A stretch of 64,000 nucleotides of DNA from Clostridia bacterium. Its GTDB lineage: Bacteria > Bacillota > Peptococcia > DRI-13 > UBA5745. The DNA lies in the NCBI GenBank assembly GCA_018434325.1, contig JAHDPO010000007.1:266210-330209 (forward strand). Reading direction: 5' to 3'. Below the pieces are notes generated by a model, which saw only the letters and a list, made by a program, of their open reading frames with translations, was not told where the DNA came from and searched no databases. The translations under genes were made by a program, and so were the position numbers. Positions 12,215 to 36,036 of this stretch are shown here, one piece after another; the stretch's first letter is position 1, and each line of letters begins with the position of its first letter.

Positions 12215-14107
12215 TCAAATTAGAGCATCAGCCGCTACAGGCTTAATCAGCGTTTTTTCCTTTGCAATGCTTAATGCCCTCATAGCATTGAGAATAGCCA
12301 GGACAGACACGCCCACATCGGCAAATACCGCGGCCCACATGCTGGCCATGCCCATAGCTCCCAGTATTAAAACCAGGCCCTTGACGCCTAAAGCAAATAC
12401 TGTGTTTTGTTTGGCGATGCCGATGGTCTTGCGGGCGACGGCAATGGCTGCGGCCAACTTTGAGGGCTCGTCGTTCATGATCACTACGTCGGCGGCCTCA
12501 ATAGCCGCGTCACTGCCCAAGGCTCCCATGGCGACGCCCACATCGGCCCGAGCCAATACCGGAGCGTCGTTGATGCCGTCACCGACGAAAACCAGCTTGC
12601 CCTTAGGGGATTTCTCCGCCATCAAAAGCTCCAGCTTGTCGACTTTATCCGCCGGCAAAAGCTGGGTAAAGACCTGGCCGATACCCAATTGTGCCGCCAC
12701 CTTTTTGCCGATGACGTCATTATCGCCGGTGAGCATCACTGTTTTTTTGATACCGCAGGCCTTCAGGCCGGCGATAGCTGCCGCCGCATCTTCTTTAATC
12801 TGATCCTCGATCAGAATGTACCCGGCATAAGCCCCCTGTTTAGCGACGTGAACTAAAGTGCCGACAGGACCTTCCGGCAGCCGGACGCCGGCTTTCTCCT
12901 CCATTAATTTATGGTTGCCGATGTAAACGGTGCTGCCGTCGATTTCCGCTTCTATGCCATAGCCCGGAATTTCCTGGACTTGACCGATTCTCGTCAAATC
13001 AGGCTCTTTACCATAAGCCCGGCGCAGAGACTGGGAAATCGGATGGGTGGAATAGCTTTCGCCCAAGGCCGCCAGCTCCAGCAATTGATCTGCCGGCATG
13101 GCCGCCGGCACAATTTCCGCCACATCAAAGCTGCCCTTCGTCAAAGTGCCTGTTTTATCAAAAACCACAATTTCAGCAGCGGCCAAGGCTTCCAAATAAT
13201 TGCCGCCCTTCACCAGCACGCCCTGCCGGGAGGAGCCGCCCAAGCCGCCGAAGAAGCTTAAGGGAATGGAGATCACCAAAGCACAGGGACAGGAGATAAC
13301 CAAAAAGGTCAGAGCCCGATAGACCCAGTCACTGAATTGAGCCCCGGCAATCACCAGGGGAGGCAGTACCGCCAGGCAGGCGGCAACGATAACCACCGCC
13401 GGCGTATAGTACCTGGCAAAACGGGTGATAAAGCTTTCCATATTGGCCTTTTTGCTGCTGGCATTCTCCACCAGGTCCAATATCCTGGCTACGGTGGATT
13501 GCTCAAACTCTTTGCTTACCTGCATCAGCAGCGTACCGTTTAAGTTGATGCAGCCGCTGAAAATTTCATTGCCCGGCAAGGCTTCCCGGGGCACGGATTC
13601 GCCGGTGAGGGCCGAGGTATCTAAAGTGGAATTACCTTCGGTGATCACTCCGTCCAAAGGCACCCGCTCACCGGGCTTGATCAAAATAATTTCTCCCACC
13701 TGCACCTCTTCCGGGTCAACCTCGATCCATTGCTCCTCCCTCATGATATTGGCATGATCCGGCCGGATATCCATCAAATCGGCAATGGATTTTCTCGATT
13801 TGCTGACCGCCACGGACTGGAAGAGCTCTCCCACCTGGTAAAACAGCATAACGGCAATGCCTTCCCGGTATTCCCCCAAGGCCAGGGCTCCAATAGTAGC
13901 AATAGTCATCAGGAAGTTTTCATCAAAAACCTGGCCCCTTCTGATGTTGCCGGCAGCCCTGAGCAGCACGTCGCCGCCGGCAATCAAATAACTGACCAGA
14001 TAGACGGCGATGAGGATCATTTCATCCGCCGGCAGCAGGATGCCGAGGACATACAGCGCCGCGGCGGCCAGAATTTTATATAGCTGTTTCTTTTGTTTCT
14101 TTGTCAT
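12215..14107 (-). CDS. Heavy-metal P1B-type ATPase, Zn/Cd/Pb type (CadA/ZntA-like), without N-terminal HMA domain
   Basis: TGES, SCPCALVISIP (CPC), DKTGTLT, GDGINDAP. TM8-region FADVGVSVLAILNAMR (Asp typical of Zn/Cd pumps). Confidence 0.85.
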   Translation of the reverse strand: MTKKQKKQLYKILAAAALYVLGILLPADEMILIAVYLVSYLIAGGDVLLRAAGNIRRGQVFDENFLMTIATIGALALGEYREGIAVMLFYQVGELFQSVAVSKSRKSIADLMDIRPDHANIMREEQWIEVDPEEVQVGEIILIKPGERVPLDGVITEGNSTLDTSALTGESVPREALPGNEIFSGCINLNGTLLMQVSKEFEQSTVARILDLVENASSKKANMESFITRFARYYTPAVVIVAACLAVLPPLVIAGAQFSDWVYRALTFLVISCPCALVISIPLSFFGGLGGSSRQGVLVKGGNYLEALAAAEIVVFDKTGTLTKGSFDVAEIVPAAMPADQLLELAALGESYSTHPISQSLRRAYGKEPDLTRIGQVQEIPGYGIEAEIDGSTVYIGNHKLMEEKAGVRLPEGPVGTLVHVAKQGAYAGYILIEDQIKEDAAAAIAGLKACGIKKTVMLTGDNDVIGKKVAAQLGIGQVFTQLLPADKVDKLELLMAEKSPKGKLVFVGDGINDAPVLARADVGVAMGALGSDAAIEAADVVIMNDEPSKLAAAIAVARKTIGIAKQNTVFALGVKGLVLILGAMGMASMWAAVFADVGVSVLAILNAMRALSIAKEKTLIKPVAADALI

Positions 14108-18698: not shown

Positions 18699-18703
18699 AA
18701 TAA

Positions 18704-18840
18704 TACTATTCTGCGATTAAAATAGCATATATGCCAATCTGCGTGGGCAAAGCCCACTATAGCTATTTATGTGGGCTTGCCCACTGCCGCACTCTGTGCG
18801 GCAAATGAAAAACTAAAGGTTTTTCATTGCAGATTAGTAT
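18704..18840. repeat. MITE-like dispersed repeat, copy 1 (12-bp terminal inverted repeats ATACTATTCTGC / GCAGATTAGTAT, internal hairpins)
   Basis: Left end ATACTATTCTGCGATTAAAATA and right end GCAGATTAGTAT are shared with 32459-32543. Termini are mutually reverse-complementary (11/12). The interior carries hairpins GTGGGCAAAGCCCAC, GTGGGCTTGCCCAC, GCCGCACTCTGTGCGGC and AATGAAAAACTAAAGGTTTTTCATT. Confidence 0.55.
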
Positions 18841-19793: not shown

Positions 19794-22484
<2,691 letters not shown>

Positions 22485-26527: not shown

Positions 26528-27466
26528 CTATTTGGCAATCAGGCCTTTTTCCTGCAGGAATTCTTTAATCACCACATTGACGTCCTTGCCTTCCACGTCT
26601 ACGGCATAGGTCAGATCCGTCATGACTTCACTGGGGAAAAGGCCGCCCAGCTTATTCAGCACTTCTTCCAGATTGGGAGCCACTTCCTTCATCTCTTCAA
26701 ACAGAGCTTCCCGCACTAAAACGGCGCCATTATACTCCGGGAAGAAGCCCTTGTCGTCGACCAGTGTTTTCATGTTGGACTTGCGGTTGAGGCCGTCGGT
26801 GGCATAAACGACGGTCACATCAATATTGCCGCTATCTACCGCCGAATACTTAAGACCGATATCGATTTGCTTCGCTTCTTTAAAGTTCAGACCGTAAAAC
26901 TCCGTCAAGGGGTTAAACTTGGCGCTGCCTTCCTCAGTGAAGAAATCATGCTCGGCCCCAAAGACCAGCTCACCTGCCACCTGGGCCAGATCGCTGACGG
27001 TTTCCATCTTGTACTTCTCATAAACTGCCGGAGCTACGCCTAAAACATAGGTATTATTGAGGCCCAGCTTATCCAGCAGCCTAACTCCCTCATCCTTGGC
27101 CTCTTCGTTGACAAAATCATAGAGATTCTTCCCCTCCGGTACATCCGAGGGATCCAAATGCAAGAATGTGGTGAGGAGAGTGCCGTCGTAGCTGTTCATC
27201 AAATCGGCGTCTCCTTTGATAATAGTATTGTAACTATTGACGGGAGCCATTTCTTCCCTGATCTCCACTTTGGCGTCTGTGTGCTCTTCAACCAGCAGCT
27301 TAACCGCCCTGTGCACCAGCCACATTTCGGAAAACTGTCCATCGTAGATGATGATCGTATCCTTTTTGCCGCCGGCTTGAGGAGCAGATCCTCCACAGCC
27401 GGCCAGCATAAGCAGCATCGCTGCACATAAGCATACCGACAGCCATTTCATCATGTTCTTCTTCAT
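26528..27466 (-). CDS. Osmoprotectant (choline/carnitine/glycine betaine) ABC transporter substrate-binding lipoprotein (OpuCC/OpuBC-like)
   Basis: Lipobox LMLAGCGGS; OpuAC-superfamily fold. Confidence 0.8.
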   Translation of the reverse strand: MKKNMMKWLSVCLCAAMLLMLAGCGGSAPQAGGKKDTIIIYDGQFSEMWLVHRAVKLLVEEHTDAKVEIREEMAPVNSYNTIIKGDADLMNSYDGTLLTTFLHLDPSDVPEGKNLYDFVNEEAKDEGVRLLDKLGLNNTYVLGVAPAVYEKYKMETVSDLAQVAGELVFGAEHDFFTEEGSAKFNPLTEFYGLNFKEAKQIDIGLKYSAVDSGNIDVTVVYATDGLNRKSNMKTLVDDKGFFPEYNGAVLVREALFEEMKEVAPNLEEVLNKLGGLFPSEVMTDLTYAVDVEGKDVNVVIKEFLQEKGLIAK

Positions 27467-27492
27467 CGTATCCCTTCCTTTCCTGTTGATAT

Positions 27493-28101
27493 TTATATGG
27501 TTTTGCGGGGGGAAAAACGGCGATATAGGCGCTTTTCAATGTGAGACATTATACCGTCGCAGCCCACCGCCATTACCATCAACGCTAACGTGCCGGACAT
27601 GATCATCGTCATGTTGGAAACCCGGATACCCCGATAAATCAAACTGCCCAAGCCGCCGCCGCCTACGAAAGTGGCAAACACCGCCGTACCAACCGAGGTA
27701 ACGGCAGCAATTCTGATGCCCGTAAAAATCAGCGGAAAAGCAATAGGCATCTCCACATGCCACAGGCGGTACAGCTTCGTCATGCCCATGCCCTGAGCCA
27801 CCTCTTTGATGGCCGGATCCACTTCGCTTAAGCCCACGTAAGTATTTTGTACCACCGGCAGCAGCGAATAAAGCAGCAGGCCGATGACCACCGTAGCCTT
27901 GCCGGCTCCCAGGAAAACCATGATAATGCCCAAAAGCGCCAGGGCCGGCATAGTTTGCAGCACCTCTACAACCCAGAGAATGATCTTGCGGACGCTTTTG
28001 TAAAAATAGGCCAGAATGCCCAAAGGCACACCGATAATAATCGTCAAGGCCACAGCTGCCAGCACCAGATAAAGGTGGCTCATAATCATGTCGAGGGTCA
28101 T
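27493..28101 (-). CDS. ABC transporter permease (OpuCD/OpuBD-like)
   Basis: BPD_transp_1, 5-6 TM. Confidence 0.8.
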   Translation of the reverse strand: MTLDMIMSHLYLVLAAVALTIIIGVPLGILAYFYKSVRKIILWVVEVLQTMPALALLGIIMVFLGAGKATVVIGLLLYSLLPVVQNTYVGLSEVDPAIKEVAQGMGMTKLYRLWHVEMPIAFPLIFTGIRIAAVTSVGTAVFATFVGGGGLGSLIYRGIRVSNMTMIMSGTLALMVMAVGCDGIMSHIEKRLYRRFSPRKTI

Positions 28102-28736
28102 TTGCTGTCCCTCCTTAATTGCTTCGGAATCAGGGCCTTGCGCAAAAAATCGATGGCCAGACTAAAAAGCAAGGCCATGATCGCCGCCGGTATGGCGCCG
28201 GCAATGATCAAAGCGTTGTTGTTGCTGGAGACGCCGGCATAGATCAGCTCGCCCAAGCCCCCCAAGCCGATCATGGCTGCCAGCACGGCCCAGCTTACGG
28301 TGTATACGGTAGATATCCGCAAGCCTGTAATAATAGAAGGAAGGGCCAGGGGCACTTCCACCTTCATTAAAATCTGGAAAGGCGACATGCCGCAACCTCT
28401 GGCGGCCTCTTTGAAGTTTTCGGAAACATTAATAATGCCTACATAAGTGTTTTTTAATATAGGGAATATGGCATAAATAGTCAGAGCGATAACCACCGTA
28501 GAGGGGACCATACCATTATAGAGAAAAAGCAGGCCGATAAAAACGATGCCGGGGATTGTCTGAAAAACCGATATAACCGGCAGGATAAGATTAGCGCGCT
28601 TAGGCATCCGGGAAAGCAAAATTCCTAAAATAAAAGCGATAACAAAAGCAAAGACCACGGAAACGACCACGTACCAAAAGTGAGTAACGATGGCCGAAGA
28701 TAACCGTTTGCCATAAAGAGCTAAAAAATGGCTCAT
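28098..28736 (-). CDS. ABC transporter permease (OpuCB/OpuBB-like)
   Basis: BPD_transp_1; 4-bp overlaps with its neighbours. Confidence 0.8.
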   Translation of the reverse strand: MSHFLALYGKRLSSAIVTHFWYVVVSVVFAFVIAFILGILLSRMPKRANLILPVISVFQTIPGIVFIGLLFLYNGMVPSTVVIALTIYAIFPILKNTYVGIINVSENFKEAARGCGMSPFQILMKVEVPLALPSIITGLRISTVYTVSWAVLAAMIGLGGLGELIYAGVSSNNNALIIAGAIPAAIMALLFSLAIDFLRKALIPKQLRRDSK

Positions 28737-29854
28737 TGGCTATCCCCCCAGACGGCATCCGCCAGGGATTTAGCCATACTGGTCTTCGTGACGATGCCGG
28801 CAATGGTTCCGTCGTGATTCAGCACCACAACGTAACTATCCTGGCCATTGAGCAGCTTATCGAAACAAATCTGAGCATCCTCATCCACGTAAGATACCGC
28901 ATTTTCCTGGGTGATCAAGGGTTCGATGGTTTTTAAATCCTTGCCGTGATTACGGATGCTTTTGATGGATACCGTGCCGGCATAGGTATCATCAAGGTTC
29001 TTGACCAGCAGGGTATCGACTTTGCGCCGGGCCATCTGCTGAATGGCTTCCCGTACACCCCGGTTGCGATAGCAACTGTAAATATCCGACCGCATAAAAT
29101 CAGCAGCCGTCTGAGGCAAAGCCTCTTGATCTTTTGAGTGCTTGCCCATGAAGCTGCGAATCAAATCGTCGGCGGGATTTTCCAGCATCTCTTCCGGTGC
29201 GGCTATCTGGACAATCTTACCCTTATTCATGAAGATGATTTTGTCGGCCATATTAAGGGCCTCATCCATATCATGGGTCACAAAAACAATGGTTTTGTTT
29301 AATTTTTTTTGGAGCTTGCTGACTTCATCCTGGAGGATGCGGCGGGTCATGGGATCCAAAGCGCCAAAAGGCTCATCCATCAGCACGATAGGCGGTGACG
29401 CGGCTAATGCCCGCAGCACCCCGATCCGCTGCTGCTGGCCGCCGGACATTTCGGAAGGATACTTATGCGCATATTCTTCATAGGGCATATCAACCAAGGC
29501 CAGAAGCTCCCGAACAATCTTATTGCATCTGGCCTTTTCATAATTCAAAAGTTTGGGCACCACAGAAATATTCTGCTCCACCGTCATGTTGGGAAACAAG
29601 CCGATCTGCTGAATAACATACCCGATAGATCGCCGCAGCTTGACCTTATCGATCTGCGAGATATCCTGATCATCAATGAATATCTTCCCCTTGTCCGGCT
29701 CGATCAAACGGTTGATCGTCTTAAGGGTGGTCGTCTTGCCGCAGCCGCTGGGCCCTATCAAGACGGTAAATTCTCCGGTGGCAATCTCCAGATTCAAGTC
29801 GTCCAAAATCAGAGACTCCCCATATCTTTTGCTTACATGTTCAAAACGTATCAT
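28733..29854 (-). CDS. Osmoprotectant ABC transporter ATP-binding protein with tandem CBS domains (OpuCA-like)
   Basis: GPSGCGKTT, SGGQQQRIGVLRA, LMDEPFGALD; C-terminal CBS pair. Confidence 0.9.
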   Translation of the reverse strand: MIRFEHVSKRYGESLILDDLNLEIATGEFTVLIGPSGCGKTTTLKTINRLIEPDKGKIFIDDQDISQIDKVKLRRSIGYVIQQIGLFPNMTVEQNISVVPKLLNYEKARCNKIVRELLALVDMPYEEYAHKYPSEMSGGQQQRIGVLRALAASPPIVLMDEPFGALDPMTRRILQDEVSKLQKKLNKTIVFVTHDMDEALNMADKIIFMNKGKIVQIAAPEEMLENPADDLIRSFMGKHSKDQEALPQTAADFMRSDIYSCYRNRGVREAIQQMARRKVDTLLVKNLDDTYAGTVSIKSIRNHGKDLKTIEPLITQENAVSYVDEDAQICFDKLLNGQDSYVVVLNHDGTIAGIVTKTSMAKSLADAVWGDSQ

Positions 29855-29974: not shown

Positions 29975-30016
29975 ACCCACAGAGGAAGAATCCTCAGAAA
30001 ACCGCACAGGAATGCG

Positions 30017-30048
30017 AAAAAAACGCTGTATCGGCCAGCGTTTTTTTC
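30017..30048. terminator. Intrinsic terminator (3' of the YdjG-like gene)
   Basis: A7-ACGCTG-tatcggc-CAGCGT-T7. Confidence 0.7.
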
Positions 30049-30125
30049 GTAAATTTTTTTCTATTTCCTGGGAAATAATAGCATTTATTTGCCGATCAGC
30101 AATTTTATTAGTTGCTTACACTATT

Positions 30126-30833
30126 TTAATTACGGGATAGCATTAAAGGCGAGCCACAGTACTCACATTGGTTTTTGCTGCCGGGGCTGATCCAATTATG
30201 GGCGCCGCAGCTGCGACAGCTAACGGCTTCTGCCGAAGGCGGCTGATACTGGCCATAGCCCTGATTTGGCGGATATCCGTAACCATCCCGGAAAACCTGA
30301 TCGGAACCTCTGCCGCCATAATACGGCTGGCGCTGATAGACGGGCGCCTGACGATGTAAAAGACGGATCTCATTGCGGTTTTCATCGATATAGGCTTGCT
30401 CAAAATACCCCATCTTAATCATCTTTTTCAGTTCCTTGCAGGCCATACTTTCTTTGACGCCGGCAAAAGCAGCAATATGAGGAATAAAAGTCAAATCATG
30501 ATTGACGATGGCATCGATATAGCACCGGTAGCGGCCGCCTTCTATGCTTCTTTTCTTTGCGGTGCGTAAGGAAGCCAGACCGCCACAGAAAAAGAAAACA
30601 GCAAAAAGCAGTTCCGTAACACCACCCTGATAGCTGTCAAAGAACGCTCCCAAAAATACCACGCCTATAAACAGCATCAGCCAGCCTACCATCGGCAGCT
30701 TTCTGTCTTTTTCTACTACCGCCCTTTTGTCTGTGGTCAGCTTCCTGATCAGCAGATATAAGCCCACCGGCCAGAAAAAAATCAGCCATAAAATTATCGC
30801 TACCCAGGAGGGGCCTGTTCTTTGCTTAATCAT
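30126..30833 (-). CDS. Membrane protein with C-terminal zinc ribbon (YdjG-like): 3 TM, cytoplasmic domain, Tyr/Gly/Gln/Pro-rich linker, CxxC...CxxC
   Basis: TM helices in the first 100 aa; low-complexity YGYPPNQGYGQYQPP; CRSCGAH...CEYCGSP zinc ribbon. Confidence 0.6.
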   Translation of the reverse strand: MIKQRTGPSWVAIILWLIFFWPVGLYLLIRKLTTDKRAVVEKDRKLPMVGWLMLFIGVVFLGAFFDSYQGGVTELLFAVFFFCGGLASLRTAKKRSIEGGRYRCYIDAIVNHDLTFIPHIAAFAGVKESMACKELKKMIKMGYFEQAYIDENRNEIRLLHRQAPVYQRQPYYGGRGSDQVFRDGYGYPPNQGYGQYQPPSAEAVSCRSCGAHNWISPGSKNQCEYCGSPLMLSRN

Positions 30834-30834
30834 C

Positions 30835-31560
30835 TCAAATCTGTTCCGTCCTTTTTTCTTTGATTTCCCGGCTTCTAAGCCGCAAAAGGCCCAGAATATC
30901 CGCCGTCAGCAGGTTCACTTGTTTTTCCACATCGATAGCGCCGGGCTTGTCCTTTTCCTGCCCTTCCTGCAAAACGTATTTTAACTCCCGGATCCTTTCC
31001 GTCAGCCCCTCATCCATACTGGAGACACTGGAATAATCGCTGTATTTGACGGCTTCCTCTATTTGCTTTAACTGCCGGCCATATTGCCGGTTGGCAGGTT
31101 CCTGGCCTAAAGCCCTGATATCCGCTTCCAAACCCCGCATGAAAATCACCGACGGCATTGTCCTGGCGCCGCCGCCTCTGCCGCCGCTGCCTGCTGCCGC
31201 CGCCATCATCAGGATCAGAAGGAAAGCCAGGATCAGGATCACCTCTAAAACAGCCAACAACCGCGGCGACGCTCCTAAAAGCAGCAAAAGCAAGGACAGG
31301 GATACGGCAGCTGTGCCATACATGAAAAATAGGGAATATACCCCGATCCGCAGCCCCGAGCCTAAACCGGCTTTCGGCATGTCTTCAAACCAGATAAATC
31401 CGGCTATCGGCAGTATTTCTCCTAAAACAATGAAAAACAGACTTACCCAATGAATGTTTTTCTGATTCGGAAAAATCCCCATAAACAACACTACGGTAGC
31501 GAAGAGGAGGATCAAGCCCATAACAGCCGCCAATCTGGTCTTTCTGCTTTTGATCATCAT
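30835..31560 (-). CDS. Polytopic membrane protein with C-terminal cytoplasmic helical domain (YdjH-like)
   Basis: True start MMIKSRK (comp. 31558-31560) with SD GGAGGAACC upstream. 4 TM + Gly-rich segment + helical C-terminal domain. ATGA overlap with the upstream SPFH gene. Confidence 0.6.
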   Translation of the reverse strand: MMIKSRKTRLAAVMGLILLFATVVLFMGIFPNQKNIHWVSLFFIVLGEILPIAGFIWFEDMPKAGLGSGLRIGVYSLFFMYGTAAVSLSLLLLLLGASPRLLAVLEVILILAFLLILMMAAAAGSGGRGGGARTMPSVIFMRGLEADIRALGQEPANRQYGRQLKQIEEAVKYSDYSSVSSMDEGLTERIRELKYVLQEGQEKDKPGAIDVEKQVNLLTADILGLLRLRSREIKEKRTEQI

Positions 31561-32444
31561 GGTTCCTCCGCTAGCCGGCCACAGTGGGGACAAAATTTGC
31601 TGCCGGCAGCAATTGCCTTTTGGCAATCAGGGCAGATTTGCCCTAAACGGCTGCCGCATTCAGGGCAGAATTTTGCCCCTTCAATAAAGACCGGCTTATT
31701 GCAGTCAGGGCAATAGCCTGCCAGCTCCTCACTGATAATAATCATCTCGGCTTTTTTGGCTAAAGCATTTTTTAGCTTGCGCACCGCCTGATCATCCTCC
31801 GGCACACTGATATCATTGATGAAAAAATGAACCAGCTCTATGCCGTATTCATCAAAATCCGGCTTGATCCGTTCCTGCAAATACAGGGATATCTCTTCCA
31901 AATAAGCATTGATCTCCAAAATACTGACTTTCTTGTGGATGAGGTAAGAAGATAAAGCGTCTTTGATTCTGGTCAGATAAAAACCCCGGAAATATTGGAT
32001 CAGATTGTCTTTATCAAAGACGGGCATAGCGCCTACCAGTTTGACCAGAAATTTTTTGGTGTCGGTGATTCTGATGCCAAATTGACCAAAGGAGCGCAAG
32101 GGAACGAAAATTCCGTAGCGGGGATCCTGGACCTGCACCGGCGTGGCCGTACCCCATTTGATATCCAATAAGTAAGCTTTATTGACAAACCAGACTTCGG
32201 CGCTAAAAGGTGAACGGCCGCCAAAAGGCAATTTTGACATACCGGCAAGCAGCGGGATATTTTCTGTGTTCAAAACATACCTGCCGCTGGGGAATATGTC
32301 CAAAGCTATGCCGTCTTTAAAAAGCACTGCTTCCTGAGACTCGTTTACGATCAGCTGGGTGCGGGTGCTCAGGCTCTCGTTGGGAAATTTCCAGGCACAT
32401 ACCCGGTCGCCGCCGTTATATTTAACTACATCGATCATCGCCAT
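31557..32444 (-). CDS. SPFH/Band-7-like (Band_7_1, YdjI-like) protein fused to a C-terminal double zinc ribbon
   Basis: N-terminal ~230 aa Band_7_1-type fold (FGIRITDTKKFLVKLVG...). C-terminal CPDCNKP...CPECGSR...CPDCQKA...CPHCGRL (DZR). Confidence 0.6.
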   Translation of the reverse strand: MAMIDVVKYNGGDRVCAWKFPNESLSTRTQLIVNESQEAVLFKDGIALDIFPSGRYVLNTENIPLLAGMSKLPFGGRSPFSAEVWFVNKAYLLDIKWGTATPVQVQDPRYGIFVPLRSFGQFGIRITDTKKFLVKLVGAMPVFDKDNLIQYFRGFYLTRIKDALSSYLIHKKVSILEINAYLEEISLYLQERIKPDFDEYGIELVHFFINDISVPEDDQAVRKLKNALAKKAEMIIISEELAGYCPDCNKPVFIEGAKFCPECGSRLGQICPDCQKAIAAGSKFCPHCGRLAEEP

Positions 32445-32458
32445 GGCTTTTCCTCCTT

Positions 32459-32543
32459 ATACTATTCTGCGATTAAAATATGGAATATTTTAATCTGGCA
32501 ATTCTTGATTGCCACTGCGCCCGGGGCGCAGGCAGATTAGTAT
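32459..32543. repeat. MITE-like dispersed repeat, copy 2 (same termini as 18704-18840, shorter core)
   Basis: ATACTATTCTGCGATTAAAATA...GCAGATTAGTAT. Internal hairpin CTGCGCCCGGGGCGCAG. Lies 14 nt upstream of the SPFH gene start codon and downstream of the HD-GYP stop. Confidence 0.55.
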
Positions 32544-32655
32544 TATCCTAAACCAATTATATGTTTTTCGCCGCTCAGGCGCAATAAGAAAGGGCCTCAA
32601 AAAGGCCCTTTCCGGTATAATATAATCAAATCTTAATCCGGCTTTAATTTTTCAT

Positions 32656-33756
32656 TTAAAAGCCGGGGGGATCTAAAAACGTCTGCCTGATTACGAGGTT
32701 GAGGCATTGGCGGTCATTATATAAATCCAATATATCCCCGTTATCCAGCACCTGCACCACCGGCCTCATAGCAAATTCATTATTGACCACCATAGCGATT
32801 TTACCATTTGACAATTCCACTAAACTGCCCAGGGGATAAGGATTGATCTTTGACAGAAAAGCCATTATGATATCGTAATCAAAGAAAGTACCGACGCCGC
32901 TCATCATATACTCCATAGCCTCCGCCGGCTGCATGGGCTGCCGGTAAGGCCGGTTGGAAGTCAGGGCGTCATAAACATCGGCCACGGCTATAATCCGGCT
33001 CAGCAGCGGGATCTCGTCTCCCCGCAATCCCAGAGGATAACCGGTACCGTCATATTTCTCATGATGGTACATAACGCCATACCAAAGTTCGTCATTGCCG
33101 ATATCTTTGTTGGATAAGTACTTGAAACCTTCCGGCGAATGGTTTTTAATTATCCTGTACTCCTCTGCATCCAGGCGGGAAGATTTATTGATGATCTGTA
33201 TGGGGATAGAGATTTTGCCGATATCGTGCATCATGGCGCATTTGCCCATTTGCTTGAGATTCTTGTGGCTGAAGCCAAGAGCCTGAGCTATCGCGATGGA
33301 TACCACGGCGACGCTTAAAGAGTGATGGTACGTATATTCGTCAAAACTCTTCAGGTTATTGATATTGACCATGGTCCGTTTGTCCTTGATTATGGTATTG
33401 ACCAGCTGCGCTATCCCATCGTCAAACTGCTTGACTTTCGAAGACAGCGTACTCTGATCCGCCTGCTCCACCAGATAAAAAACATCTTCCAAAGTAGTCA
33501 GCAATTCCTGGCGCAGTATGGGTCCTACCGCCGGCAGTTCTTTAGGTATACTGATCAATGCCGACGGTTTGAAGGCAGATAAAACCTTAACTTCACGAAC
33601 ACCGTTTTTCGTGATCTTATCAATTAAATATTTTGTTAAGACCGTATTCTTGGCTATAAGCGGCACTCGCCCCTCTTGGGAGGAATAAACGCCTTCATCC
33701 AAGATCATACCCTCAATTAATTCACTTACCGGCAGTCTCTTGCTCATGGCTTTCAC
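32656..33756 (-). CDS. HD-GYP domain c-di-GMP phosphodiesterase with N-terminal regulatory domain
   Basis: HDIGKISIP ... HHEKYDGTGYPLGLRGDEIPLLSRIIAVADVYDAL. Confidence 0.85.
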   Translation of the reverse strand: MKAMSKRLPVSELIEGMILDEGVYSSQEGRVPLIAKNTVLTKYLIDKITKNGVREVKVLSAFKPSALISIPKELPAVGPILRQELLTTLEDVFYLVEQADQSTLSSKVKQFDDGIAQLVNTIIKDKRTMVNINNLKSFDEYTYHHSLSVAVVSIAIAQALGFSHKNLKQMGKCAMMHDIGKISIPIQIINKSSRLDAEEYRIIKNHSPEGFKYLSNKDIGNDELWYGVMYHHEKYDGTGYPLGLRGDEIPLLSRIIAVADVYDALTSNRPYRQPMQPAEAMEYMMSGVGTFFDYDIIMAFLSKINPYPLGSLVELSNGKIAMVVNNEFAMRPVVQVLDNGDILDLYNDRQCLNLVIRQTFLDPPGF

Positions 33757-33853
33757 TCCAATAGCTTATATTTAGCAGACTTTACATCTATTTTGATCCA
33801 TGTTATTCTATAATTGTATTATTTTGTATTTTGTTTTGGCAAGGAGGTCAATT

Positions 33854-34438
33854 ATGATCAATAATCCTGTCCTTGATTGTATTCGCAGCCGCAGGAGCAT
33901 CCGGCATTTTGACGAGCAGCAAATTCGCTCCGAAGAACTGGACGCCTTATTGGAAGCCGCCATCTGGGCGCCCAGCGGTGGCAACAGCCAGAGCTGGCTC
34001 TTTACCGCCATCCAAAATCAAAGTCTCCTTTTTGAGCTAAACGCCATTGTACGTCAGGCCTTTCAGCACTGGGTGCCTGATGATGATTACCCTGCTAAGC
34101 TAAATGCCAAAACAAAGGCTCAGGATGAAAACTACAATTTTTATTATCATGCTCCCACGCTGATCATAGCCTCCAACCGGCCGGGTTATGCCAACGCTAT
34201 GGCTGATTGCTCTTTGGCCCTGGAAAATATTTTTTTGGCCGCCAATTCTCTGGGCTTGGGCAGCTGCTATATCAATCAGCTTCATTGGCTGCGGGATGAT
34301 GAAAATGTCAGAGCCTTTCTCTATGAGCTGGGCATTCCCAGAAAACACATCATCTGCAATGCCGCCGCTATCGGCTACATCAAGAAAACTCCGGATATAC
34401 CCCCGCGCAAAGAAAACACCATAAAGATTATCAAATAA
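33854..34438 (+). CDS. Nitroreductase-family oxidoreductase (FMN-dependent)
   Basis: IRSRRSIRHF...APSGGNSQSW. ATG 33854 with SD AAGGAGG. The track start 33800 is an over-extension. Confidence 0.8.
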   Translation: MINNPVLDCIRSRRSIRHFDEQQIRSEELDALLEAAIWAPSGGNSQSWLFTAIQNQSLLFELNAIVRQAFQHWVPDDDYPAKLNAKTKAQDENYNFYYHAPTLIIASNRPGYANAMADCSLALENIFLAANSLGLGSCYINQLHWLRDDENVRAFLYELGIPRKHIICNAAAIGYIKKTPDIPPRKENTIKIIK

Positions 34439-34482
34439 TCACCGCGGAGCGAAGAACCGGACCGCAATGCTGATTTTTACTT

Positions 34483-36036
34483 CTATTCTTCAAAGCCTTC
34501 CTTATACAGAACCGTCCGGTTGCGCCCCTGCCCCTTTGCCTGATACATGGCCTGATCCGCATAGCGGATGGTGGCTTCAAAGCCCCGCTCATGCCTGCCG
34601 GCTGCCACGCCGAAGCTGGCAGTGACGGCTATTGCCGTATCCTGATAAACCACAGGCTGCCCTTCTATGCATTGCCGCAGGCGCTCCGCCAGATATACCG
34701 CCGCCTTCTCGCCCGTATCCGCCGCCAGGATGATAAACTCCTCACCGCCGTAGCGGGCCAGCAAATCATAGGATCGCAAGGCTTTTTTTATCCTTGCCGA
34801 TATCACTTTTAAAACCTGATCCCCCGCCTCATGGCCGTAAGTATCATTCACTCGTTTAAAATGATCCAGATCAAACAAAATAAGACAATAGGGACTCCAT
34901 TTCCGCTTAACCATAGCATCATGGCGCTCCGCCAGCTCCTGAAAATAACGGCGGTTAAAAAGGCCTGTAAGACCGTCGGTATGGGCTACTTCCTCCAAGC
35001 GGTCAAGCAGCATTACCGTATCGGTAATATCCCGGATCAGGATAACCCAACCCTTCAATTTGCCTTTGGGATTGTATAGTCCATTCAGCGTAGTGTTATA
35101 ATGCCGGATCTGCTCTTCTGCCGGCTTGAGCCGGAAATTAGCCTCCCGGGTCTGAGCGCTGAGACAGTGCCTGCTTAACTCTTCCGGCCAATCATTGATC
35201 AAGGTAACGTCACTGCCTTTTGCCAGGACCTGCAGCTGAGGGAAAATACCGTAGGCGGCAGGATTAGCGCTGAGAAACCCCATATCTCCATCCACTAAAA
35301 TAAAAGCCTCCCCCACCACATCCAAAGCGATGGCAGAGCCTTGAGGGATGATGTCGAATAAATCATAGCGCATAATATTGATGTAGAAAAAAACATTCAG
35401 CACCGCCAAAGACAGCGGCGTGTAATTGATCCCTAAGGTATCGACTTTCAAAACAAACAGGATATCGGCCGTCACCGGCATCAAAGCGCCCACCAGGAGC
35501 AGCACCAACTGGCTTCTGTACTTCTGATGCCAGCTGCCCAGCCTGCCGGCCAGGATGAGACAAGCCAATGCCATACAAAGCAAGCTGTAAAAATGATTGA
35601 TATAATAAAGCCGCCCCGGCGTCACCTCCAAATAGGGAACCGGTGCAACCACATTATACTGATAAGCAGTATAGATTAATCCGTGCAGGTTTGTGGTCCA
35701 AAGCAATACTACCACGGCCACCGGAACGACCAGCAGCAGGGCAATGACGGCGGGTCTGTTCCAGGTGCTTTCACAATAATCGGACACAAAGAGCAAATAT
35801 AGGGGGGCAATGAAAGCCGCACCCAGGTACATCACCTTCAACGCCGTAAAACCGGCGCTGGTATTGCCTGCCGTAACCTCCAGCAGATAGCCTAAAGCAA
35901 AAAGAAATACCGCCGTATCCAGTACGATAAAATAGCCTCTTTTGGCGCTGCGGCAACAGAACATGGTGAAAACGCCAAGAAAAACCGTGATGATCAAAGC
36001 AGCCACCATAATACAGGCGACAATCAGTTTTACCAC
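34483..36036 (-). CDS. Membrane sensor diguanylate cyclase (multi-TM N-domain - PAS - GGDEF)
   Basis: 7-8 TM, then RYGGEEFIILA (GGEEF), RxxD I-site present. Confidence 0.85.
   Translation of the reverse strand: MVKLIVACIMVAALIITVFLGVFTMFCCRSAKRGYFIVLDTAVFLFALGYLLEVTAGNTSAGFTALKVMYLGAAFIAPLYLLFVSDYCESTWNRPAVIALLLVVPVAVVVLLWTTNLHGLIYTAYQYNVVAPVPYLEVTPGRLYYINHFYSLLCMALACLILAGRLGSWHQKYRSQLVLLLVGALMPVTADILFVLKVDTLGINYTPLSLAVLNVFFYINIMRYDLFDIIPQGSAIALDVVGEAFILVDGDMGFLSANPAAYGIFPQLQVLAKGSDVTLINDWPEELSRHCLSAQTREANFRLKPAEEQIRHYNTTLNGLYNPKGKLKGWVILIRDITDTVMLLDRLEEVAHTDGLTGLFNRRYFQELAERHDAMVKRKWSPYCLILFDLDHFKRVNDTYGHEAGDQVLKVISARIKKALRSYDLLARYGGEEFIILAADTGEKAAVYLAERLRQCIEGQPVVYQDTAIAVTASFGVAAGRHERGFEATIRYADQAMYQAKGQGRNRTVLYKEGFEE

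Follow-up and report, generated by a model that had tools for sequence, protein, structure and literature searches.

Can an SPFH protein with zinc ribbons work at the membrane with partners of its own and no PspA beside it? This question is raised by three genes of a Clostridia bacterium, which lie in a window of 64,000 nucleotides (the whole stretch of DNA that was analysed). To our knowledge, YdjI/SamI of Bacillus subtilis is the sole YdjI-type SPFH protein that has been studied, and it is understood through PspA together with YdjG and YdjH. In that species, where pspA-ydjGHI has been renamed pspA-samGHI, the soluble YdjI forms foci at the membrane only with the help of the membrane proteins YdjG and YdjH; YdjI in turn binds PspA and is required for PspA membrane foci (PMC8581546). 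According to a 2026 preprint, SamI restrains SamGH signalling and PspA is dispensable for the phenotype (10.64898/2026.02.06.704340). In this study we show that the operon encodes a YdjI/SamI-type SPFH scaffold protein with a new set of partners; it belongs to a known kind of membrane-stress module and is not a new kind of system. The three tightly coupled genes, all on the minus strand, are:

31557-32444, minus strand: g1, a soluble YdjI/SamI-type SPFH (Band_7_1) protein with a C-terminal double zinc ribbon, 295 aa (Pfam, BLASTP)
30835-31560, minus strand: g2, a 4-TM protein with a Gly-rich loop and a predicted cytoplasmic four-helix bundle, 241 aa (hydropathy, AlphaFold model)
30126-30833, minus strand: g3, a 3-TM protein with a predicted cytoplasmic winged helix and a C-terminal zinc ribbon, 235 aa (hydropathy, predicted model)

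Re-reading the sequence confirmed the gene coordinates of the original prediction (30126-32444) as well as the ATGA overlap between g1 and g2 (g1 stop at 31559-31557, g2 ATG at 31560-31558). At the g2/g3 junction a 2-nt overlap had been claimed; the sequence reads ATT TGA G ATG, which is a 1-nt spacer, and the coupling is still tight. Gene callers start g2 at the next ATG and thus give it 240 aa. The elements around the genes are:

32579-32584, minus strand: -35-like hexamer TTGCGC of the inferred operon promoter, 17 nt upstream of a perfect TATAAT (sequence)
32556-32561, minus strand: -10 hexamer TATAAT, resembling the sigma-A and not the sigma-W type, invariant in the window and in the related loci L001 and L002
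32460-32543, unstranded: MITE-like insertion of 84 nt in the 5' UTR, with imperfect terminal inverted repeats ATACTAWTCTGC
32452-32458, minus strand: ribosome-binding site AAGGAGG of g1, 7 nt ahead of the ATG at 32444 (sequence)
30013-30051, unstranded: terminator-like hairpin with a 16-bp stem and A/T tracts on both sides, 75 nt past the g3 stop

Since the start and stop codons overlap or lie 1 nt apart, a single conserved promoter stands upstream and a terminator-like hairpin follows downstream, g1-g2-g3 is one operon. The hairpin separates g3 from a glycine-betaine (Opu-type) ABC operon directly downstream, an adjacency shared by the closest relative (L001) alone, and it is followed by a strong promoter-like site, TTGACA-18-TATACT (11/12; 29974-29945, minus strand). 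The only promoter visible in the leader of g1 is the predicted sigma-A-like TTGCGC-17-TATAAT, whose -35-like block is also conserved in the aligned leaders of L001 and L002; reading the leader for the sigma-W motif TGAAAC...CGTA revealed none. The promoter looks like one for sigma-A rather than for a stress ECF factor, which counts against an envelope-stress reading of the operon.

A mobile-repeat insertion had been predicted in the leader, and it is there. The 84-nt element is bordered by TA duplications (32544-32545 and 32458-32459) and stops 2 nt short of the AGGAGG core of the g1 ribosome-binding site, and it is missing from the leaders of L001 and L002, where AGGA-TA-AGGAGG is contiguous. 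Its terminal repeats occur four times in the window (0.45 expected), and a second copy of the element lies at 18703-18840. The leader RNA has a predicted fold in which the terminal-repeat stem encloses three hairpins (-42.5 kcal/mol, z=-4.7). The sole match of an Rfam scan of the whole window at gathering scores was a glycine riboswitch outside the leader.

The identity of the first gene is clear. g1 matches Band_7_1 (PF13421) over residues 18-218 with 167.7 bits (cut-off 24, E=3.5e-49), Band_7 (PF01145) with 28.1 bits (cut-off 23.6) and DZR (PF12773) over residues 245-289 with 40.5 bits (cut-off 27.3), and it carries four CxxC motifs (at 245, 260, 271 and 285), which is the architecture that had been predicted for it. 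In BLASTP it aligns with B. subtilis YdjI, here taken from a recovered pspA-ydjGHI locus (L084), at E=5e-18 and 24% identity (g1 residues 13-290, YdjI 19-320). Judged from this alignment, g1 is a distant full-length homologue of YdjI with the same SPFH plus C-terminal zinc-ribbon architecture. Its sequence is also that of a soluble protein without an intrinsic membrane anchor: the maximal Kyte-Doolittle hydropathy over 19 residues is 0.86, and the threshold for a hydrophobic segment was 1.6. SPFH assemblies of HflK/C type close their cages with a long coiled-coil region, which g1 lacks, and no solved PF13421 structure was detectable by sequence. The combination of SPFH and zinc ribbon had been called poorly characterised, which is only partly true, given that YdjI itself is built in this standard way, as are more than 3000 proteins in the databases. 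YdjI has one ribbon, g1 two and most close relatives of g1 five, so the two ribbons of g1 represent a reduced form. Across g1 homologues, ribbon number was not correlated with how many zinc-ribbon partner genes there are (Spearman rho 0.11, p=0.36).

The two membrane proteins are of a different kind from those of B. subtilis. g2 has four hydrophobic segments, and in its AlphaFold model four TM helices are followed by a Gly-rich loop (124-132) and by four helices on the cytoplasmic side (134-240), in agreement with the 4-TM protein with Gly-rich segment and helical tail first proposed. For g3, hydropathy (three hydrophobic segments), CxxC motifs at 206 and 223 and the predicted model likewise bear out three TM helices, a disordered Y/G/Q-rich stretch (164-197) and a terminal zinc ribbon (202-230), so that both flanking proteins of the operon do carry zinc ribbons, with four CxxC motifs in g1 and two in g3. 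The winged-helix domain of g3 (about 98-158) had been overlooked. Neither the g2 family nor the g3 family has a Pfam model, and our literature search found no published description of either. Domain searches of g2 and g3 gave no TPM, protease or AAA domain, and NfeD had no match in g2, g3 or their family members. DUF2852 gave sub-threshold matches in 11 of 18 g3-family members.

Are g2 and g3 nevertheless YdjH and YdjG in disguise? They were tried as homologues of YdjH, YdjG or PspA by BLASTP, profile hmmsearch and hhalign, with negative results except for the zinc ribbon. Neither the g2 nor the g3 profile exceeded an hhalign probability of 3.1% against YdjH, which itself matches TPM_phosphatase (PF04536) at E=7.7e-22 (sequence from L084), and YdjH as phmmer query had no match in any of 80 related loci. 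The match of g3 to YdjG is confined to a generic 24-residue zinc ribbon (hhalign 54%); the N-terminal 162 residues of g3 reach 0.2%. Of the YdjI/YdjH/YdjG likeness in the original prediction, the YdjI part therefore stands and the other two parts fall, and with no YdjH-like or YdjG-like protein among g2 and g3, its "reversed order" I-H-G has no meaning for this locus.

What remains in common with ydjGHI is nonetheless substantial. g1 and YdjI/SamI share Band_7_1, a soluble SPFH protein ending in zinc ribbon(s) and full-length similarity, and in both cases the SPFH gene is encoded with two membrane proteins, one of them bearing a cytoplasmic zinc ribbon. In contrast, the studied operon has no pspA, its SPFH gene comes first and its promoter looks sigma-A-like, not sigma-W-like. 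YdjI has a low-complexity linker and a single ribbon, g1 no such linker and two ribbons. YdjH is a membrane-anchored TPM-domain protein, whereas g2 spans the membrane four times and continues in a cytoplasmic helical bundle. In YdjG, two zinc ribbons at the N-terminus precede a globular (NTF2-like) domain and a C-terminal TM (PMC11237479); g3 has three TM helices, a winged helix and a C-terminal ribbon.

The arrangement is not peculiar to this genome. All three families occur together in 36 of 80 related species-level loci, 33 of them with the order found here (S-M-W), so the trio is a real conserved unit, arranged in this way far beyond chance. The 80 loci, 57 of which contain a g2-like gene, span several phyla and come from Clostridia, Paenibacillus/Cohnella, Erysipelothrix, Eggerthellaceae, 'Deltaproteobacteria' MAGs and Sumerlaeota, and intergenic gaps are mostly below 30 nt. 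These counts come from non-iterated domain models, because iterated g3 and YdjG HMMs drifted via the shared zinc ribbon. In nine related loci the third gene beside a g2-like gene is a true YdjG homologue (the third-position protein of L077 matches YdjG at E=9e-18). The g2-type and YdjG-type partners are therefore members of a single evolutionary pool from which YdjI proteins draw their partners, and these loci link the trio to ydjGHI in evolution. A recurrent extra partner gene was also sought: 955 flanking ORFs were clustered and 150 were scanned against Pfam, with lineage-specific synteny as the only outcome (for example obg/rpmA/hom in Paenibacillus and a MerR-like gene in Eggerthellaceae).

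PspA is consistently missing from this picture. In the window, tblastn with B. subtilis PspA gave a best E of 1.4, which upholds the statement that no pspA is adjacent, and loci L001-L083 had no tblastn match at E<=0.01. Nor was PspA_IM30 among the 25 families, each with at least two members, listed for the 150 flanking ORFs, so that it occurs there at most once.

Hence, on balance, we favour the reading that the operon encodes a self-contained, membrane-anchored SPFH complex of YdjI/SamI type. It draws on how the domains are arranged, on g1 being a homologue of YdjI, on the cytoplasmic position of all soluble domains, on the strict co-occurrence of the three families and on the lack of PspA nearby. 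g1, being soluble, would be unable to bind the membrane alone. By analogy with YdjGHI/SamGHI, g2 and g3 may be the dedicated inner-membrane partners that recruit it to the cytoplasmic face, where g1, despite lacking a long coiled coil, might oligomerise and organise or restrain them. The outcome could be a sub-membrane scaffold, a brake or an envelope-stress sensor that would need no PspA encoded in the operon. With no homology between g2 or g3 and YdjH or YdjG, the analogy is drawn only through g1 and the gene linkage; the nine loci with a true YdjG homologue in place of g3 beside a g2-like gene strengthen it. A functional analogy, with membrane partners recruiting a soluble SPFH protein in an envelope-stress role, is still plausible.

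It might also be that the module works exactly like YdjGHI and recruits or nucleates a PspA/IM30 (ESCRT-III-like) protein encoded elsewhere, with g2 and g3 as non-homologous replacements of YdjH and YdjG. The dependence of PspA foci on YdjI and the binding of the two proteins (PMC8581546) would fit, as would the nine YdjG-bearing loci and the proposal by Ravi et al. that abbreviated Band-7 operons act with PspA in trans (PMC11237479). However, PspA was found neither in the window nor within about 5-8 kb in the 80 related loci (flanking ORFs sampled), and this consistent unlinking argues against an obligatory partnership; moreover, in B. subtilis PspA is not needed for the SamI phenotype (10.64898/2026.02.06.704340). 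We therefore regard this explanation as rather unlikely.

More speculative, and to our mind doubtful, is a broader version of the self-contained complex, in which YdjI-type SPFH proteins are the hub of a widespread PspA-independent module. Here the scaffold and a g2-like 4-TM adaptor would be constant and the third subunit swappable, being a 3-TM winged-helix, a YdjG or a leucine-rich-repeat (LRR) surface-receptor protein. The cytoplasmic zinc ribbon that they share ('CxxCGA...CxYCG') might serve as the docking tag by which each third subunit is recognised, and the g3 winged helix, presumably not DNA-binding, could be an ESCRT-II-like adaptor for membrane-remodelling proteins.

The same domain could instead make g3 a membrane-tethered transcription regulator, gated by the SPFH protein, that signals from membrane to DNA. 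The middle domain of g3 does have a winged-helix fold in the predicted model, and its recognition helix is devoid of conserved basic or polar residues for DNA contact: no position from 128 to 141 has more than 44% K/R among 73 sequences, and position 134 is D/E in 68% of them. Such signalling appears improbable.

A still smaller chance is left to an anti-phage or abortive-infection system with an SPFH/zinc-ribbon sensor that triggers membrane effectors. Some conflict systems reportedly include SPFH and zinc-ribbon proteins, and distant PF13421 homologues lie on a Butyrivibrio plasmid beside restriction-modification and toxin-antitoxin genes and on three uncultured phage contigs; these distant members, in unrelated contexts, were all that the plasmid and phage searches returned. 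Against this, none of the three proteins had a PADLOC family at E<=1, PHROG matches were to zinc ribbons only, the neighbours are housekeeping genes (obg, rpmA, hom, a pheB-type ACT gene, ABC transporters) rather than defence islands, and the module is vertically conserved within Paenibacillus at a single syntenic position. Finally, a quality-control pair of SPFH-protease or SPFH-NfeD type (like HflK/C-FtsH or stomatin-NfeD), for which it counts that these are the best-understood bacterial SPFH operons, is hardly tenable and largely refuted by domain content, as g2 and g3 lack NfeD, protease and AAA domains and g1 lacks a TM anchor and a long coiled coil.

SPFH-NfeD operons (QmcA-YbbJ, YqiK-YqiJ, FloT-YuaF, archaeal stomatin-STOPP) also co-transcribe an SPFH gene with a small multi-TM partner, the two presumably acting jointly at the membrane, but their SPFH proteins belong to PF01145 with their own membrane anchor and coiled coils, and their partner has the NfeD OB-fold domain. 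In LiaI/LiaF-LiaH small multi-TM proteins anchor a soluble stress protein, and the g3 N-terminus weakly matches LiaI-LiaF-TM (PF22570) at 18.6 bits, below the cut-off of 27 (E=0.0033), with weak matches (E<=0.1) in 5 of 18 g3-family members; the studied locus, though, has no LiaH/PspA, Toastrack domain or two-component system. Archaeal 'Meth_adaptin' ESCRT loci link a single protein with SPFH, coiled-coil and zinc-ribbon parts to membrane-remodelling genes and have a glycine-betaine ProX gene nearby, as an Opu-type operon follows g3 here, yet their Vps4, ESCRT-III and adaptin-like genes are absent from our locus (Makarova et al. 2024, PMC10936438).

In conclusion, we characterized a locus that extends a known system rather than establishing a new principle. 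Together with dozens of relatives it shows that the YdjI-type scaffold is more often encoded without PspA, and it supports the recent view of a PspA-independent role for the SPFH module. Testable partner proteins are now defined in culturable Paenibacillus and Clostridium species, and there is a hint that a tethered zinc ribbon may be common to all types of third subunit.

Three ORFs were read on the minus strand of the window between 30126 and 32444, and a MITE-like element lies in the leader of the first gene, with a second copy elsewhere in the window:

31557-32444, minus strand: g1, SPFH protein, 295 aa, stop TGA
30835-31560, minus strand: g2, membrane protein, ATG overlapping the g1 TGA as ATGA
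30126-30833, minus strand: g3, membrane protein, start 1 nt past the g2 stop
32460-32543: MITE-like element copy 1, 84 nt, imperfect ATACTAWTCTGC terminal inverted repeats, TA flanks
18703-18840: MITE-like element copy 2, about 138 nt, same ends ATACTAWTCTGC, TA flanks

The sequence confirms the predicted ATGA overlap of g1 and g2 (in public gene calls g2 starts one codon later, giving 240 aa). Coupling of g2 and g3 is also real, but the 2-nt overlap originally described there is slightly wrong, because the junction reads TGA-G-ATG and thus contains a 1-nt spacer.

The protein g1 matches Pfam Band_7_1 (167.7 bits, E=3.5e-49) as well as Band_7 and DZR, all above cut-off. A sequence scan shows CxxC four times in it and no hydrophobic segment, so the predicted SPFH protein with a double zinc ribbon is indeed present. 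More than 3000 database homologues were found, mostly 'SPFH domain-containing proteins' of ~432 aa in which a low-complexity linker is combined with multiple ribbons. The homologues carry between one and five ribbons, typically five, so g1 of the window is a compact two-ribbon form.

The original prediction compared all three proteins to YdjI, YdjH and YdjG of B. subtilis. A genuine pspA-ydjGHI locus came from a search of metagenome contigs with the primer that Scholz et al. 2021 (PMC8581546) give for cloning ydjG. According to Pfam, its YdjG begins with TFIIB-type zinc ribbons, a TPM domain is present in YdjH, and YdjI combines Band_7_1 with a single C-terminal ribbon, in agreement with Ravi et al. 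2024 (PMC11237479). Full-length alignment of g1 to YdjI gave 24% identity (E=5e-18); both combine Band_7_1 with C-terminal ribbon, but YdjI has one ribbon and g1 two. Whether searched singly or as profiles of their families, g2 and g3 gave no match to YdjG, YdjH or PspA beyond 24 residues of zinc ribbon. The likeness to YdjI is thus confined to g1; g2 and g3 belong to different families, and the comparison holds for the first protein only.

In B. subtilis the membrane arrival of soluble YdjI depends on YdjG and YdjH (PMC8581546), and according to a 2026 preprint SamI, as YdjI has been renamed, restrains SamGH signalling independently of PspA (10.64898/2026.02.06.704340). By analogy, we propose that g2 and g3 anchor g1 at the membrane, where it would act as a scaffold or stress sensor. 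Of this picture, the domain architecture and the linkage of the genes are established, and the contacts among the proteins and their role in the cell are inferred. Judged by charge distribution, the soluble domains of g2 and g3 would all be cytoplasmic, in the same compartment as soluble g1.

The trio is conserved well beyond the window. Among 80 related species-level loci, in which ORFs were assigned with non-iterated models, 36 encode an SPFH protein together with g2-like and g3-like proteins, 33 of these in the exact order. A g2-like gene occurs in 57 of the 80, the g3-like gene is often duplicated (up to four copies), and gaps between module genes are mostly below 30 nt. Carriers are Clostridia, Paenibacillus/Cohnella, Erysipelothrix, Eggerthellaceae, 'Deltaproteobacteria' MAGs and Sumerlaeota. 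The flanks of the 80 loci hold no further recurrent family beyond lineage synteny. As predicted, no pspA is adjacent: tblastn detected no PspA in the window or the fetched loci, and the families that a Pfam scan listed for 150 ORFs from the flanks do not include it. YdjI itself is encoded beside pspA, and PspA acting in trans on the module is an alternative that we consider rather unlikely.

Hydrophobic segments (four in g2, three in g3) and the structure model of g3 support the predicted four- and three-TM proteins, the latter with a terminal zinc ribbon (two CxxC motifs). The model, built on an alignment of 18 sequences (pLDDT 76), shows three TM helices, a compact three-helix and beta-hairpin domain at ~98-158 (pLDDT 85-95), a Y/G/Q-rich disordered segment at 164-197 and the ribbon at 202-230. 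Such a domain might suggest a membrane-tethered transcription factor. Across 73 g3 family members the putative DNA-contacting helix has a conserved acidic and no conserved basic residue, and therefore we read the domain as a probable protein-binding winged helix; a transcription factor seems improbable. Neither g2 nor g3 has a significant match in Pfam, NCBIfam, PADLOC or PHROG. Of the remaining readings, anti-phage defence is very improbable, and an NfeD or protease-type pair, another known kind of SPFH partner, even less probable. The g2 family has no Pfam model; it comprises 486 representatives (50% identity clusters, E<=1e-3), uniformly ~232 aa long. In the literature searched, the trio and the g2 and g3 families are nowhere described.

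The third gene varies. In nine loci the order is SPFH gene, g2-like gene and a true YdjG homologue with N-terminal ribbon, globular domain and TM segments (L077 against YdjG, E=9e-18 over 277 residues). In five Lachnospiraceae loci it is of a zinc ribbon-TM-LRR-like type and g2 is absent. In L010, L011, L029, L035 and L062 (Lachnospiraceae/Acetatifactor) a ~600-690-aa ORF follows the SPFH gene, and L049 has a 640-aa ORF two ORFs downstream. By eye, the L010 and L029 sequences combine an N-terminal zinc ribbon and one TM segment with a large extracellular leucine-rich-repeat-like domain, which points to a form of the module that includes a surface receptor. A similar CxxCG...CxYCG ribbon occurs in every type of third gene, and the g3 HMM matched all of them but only one g1 protein, although g1 proteins carry ribbons. 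What these loci have in common is an SPFH-ribbon protein together with a membrane protein presenting a cytoplasmic ribbon. In five Eggerthellaceae loci (L028, L041, L047, L053, L061) a ~366-aa gene with a by-eye MerR-type HTH motif lies in the upstream flank, in some directly upstream of the module; it could be a lineage-specific regulator.

A predicted TTGCGC-17-TATAAT promoter is conserved in the aligned leaders of the window and of L001 (the closest relative) and L002. Only the window leader carries 86 additional nt, the 84-nt element plus a duplicated TA, ending 2 nt short of the AGGAGG core of the ribosome-binding site. Copy 1 is thus an insertion relative to the orthologous leaders, and together with copy 2 it bears out the mobile repeat first suspected there. 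The TA flanks of both copies are consistent with TA target-site duplication; their internal hairpins differ in sequence. Copy 2 sits shortly past the 3' end of a gene; we take the C-terminus of its product to be an OpuA-type CBS region. The leader RNA has a strong fold, at -42.5 kcal/mol (z=-4.7) and reaches the gathering score of no Rfam family; the sole such match in the whole window is a glycine riboswitch aptamer (RF00504, 11984-12079, minus strand, 57.9 bits, E=2.3e-9). A 78-nt direct repeat (12521-12598 and 20349-20426, 79% identity) is probably a conserved motif of two paralogous genes, not a mobile repeat.

Directly downstream of the SPFH operon lies a four-gene glycine-betaine-type ABC transporter operon (26528-29854, minus strand; ABC_tran+CBS, two BPD_transp_1, OpuAC), which has a strong promoter-like site of its own (29974-29945). 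This adjacency is kept in L001 and not in the other loci. In archaeal ESCRT loci a ProX gene occurs near SPFH-zinc-ribbon genes (Makarova et al. 2024, PMC10936438), a parallel that may be coincidence. Just upstream (32656-36036) are an HD-GYP-type (HD_5/HD) gene and a 7TM-GGDEF diguanylate cyclase gene, a c-di-GMP context common to L001 only.

In conclusion, YdjI-type SPFH-ribbon proteins were already known, and the new part is a widely conserved partner set without PspA. The trio is no surprise at the level of principle, but it should be useful to researchers of Psp systems and of SPFH proteins.
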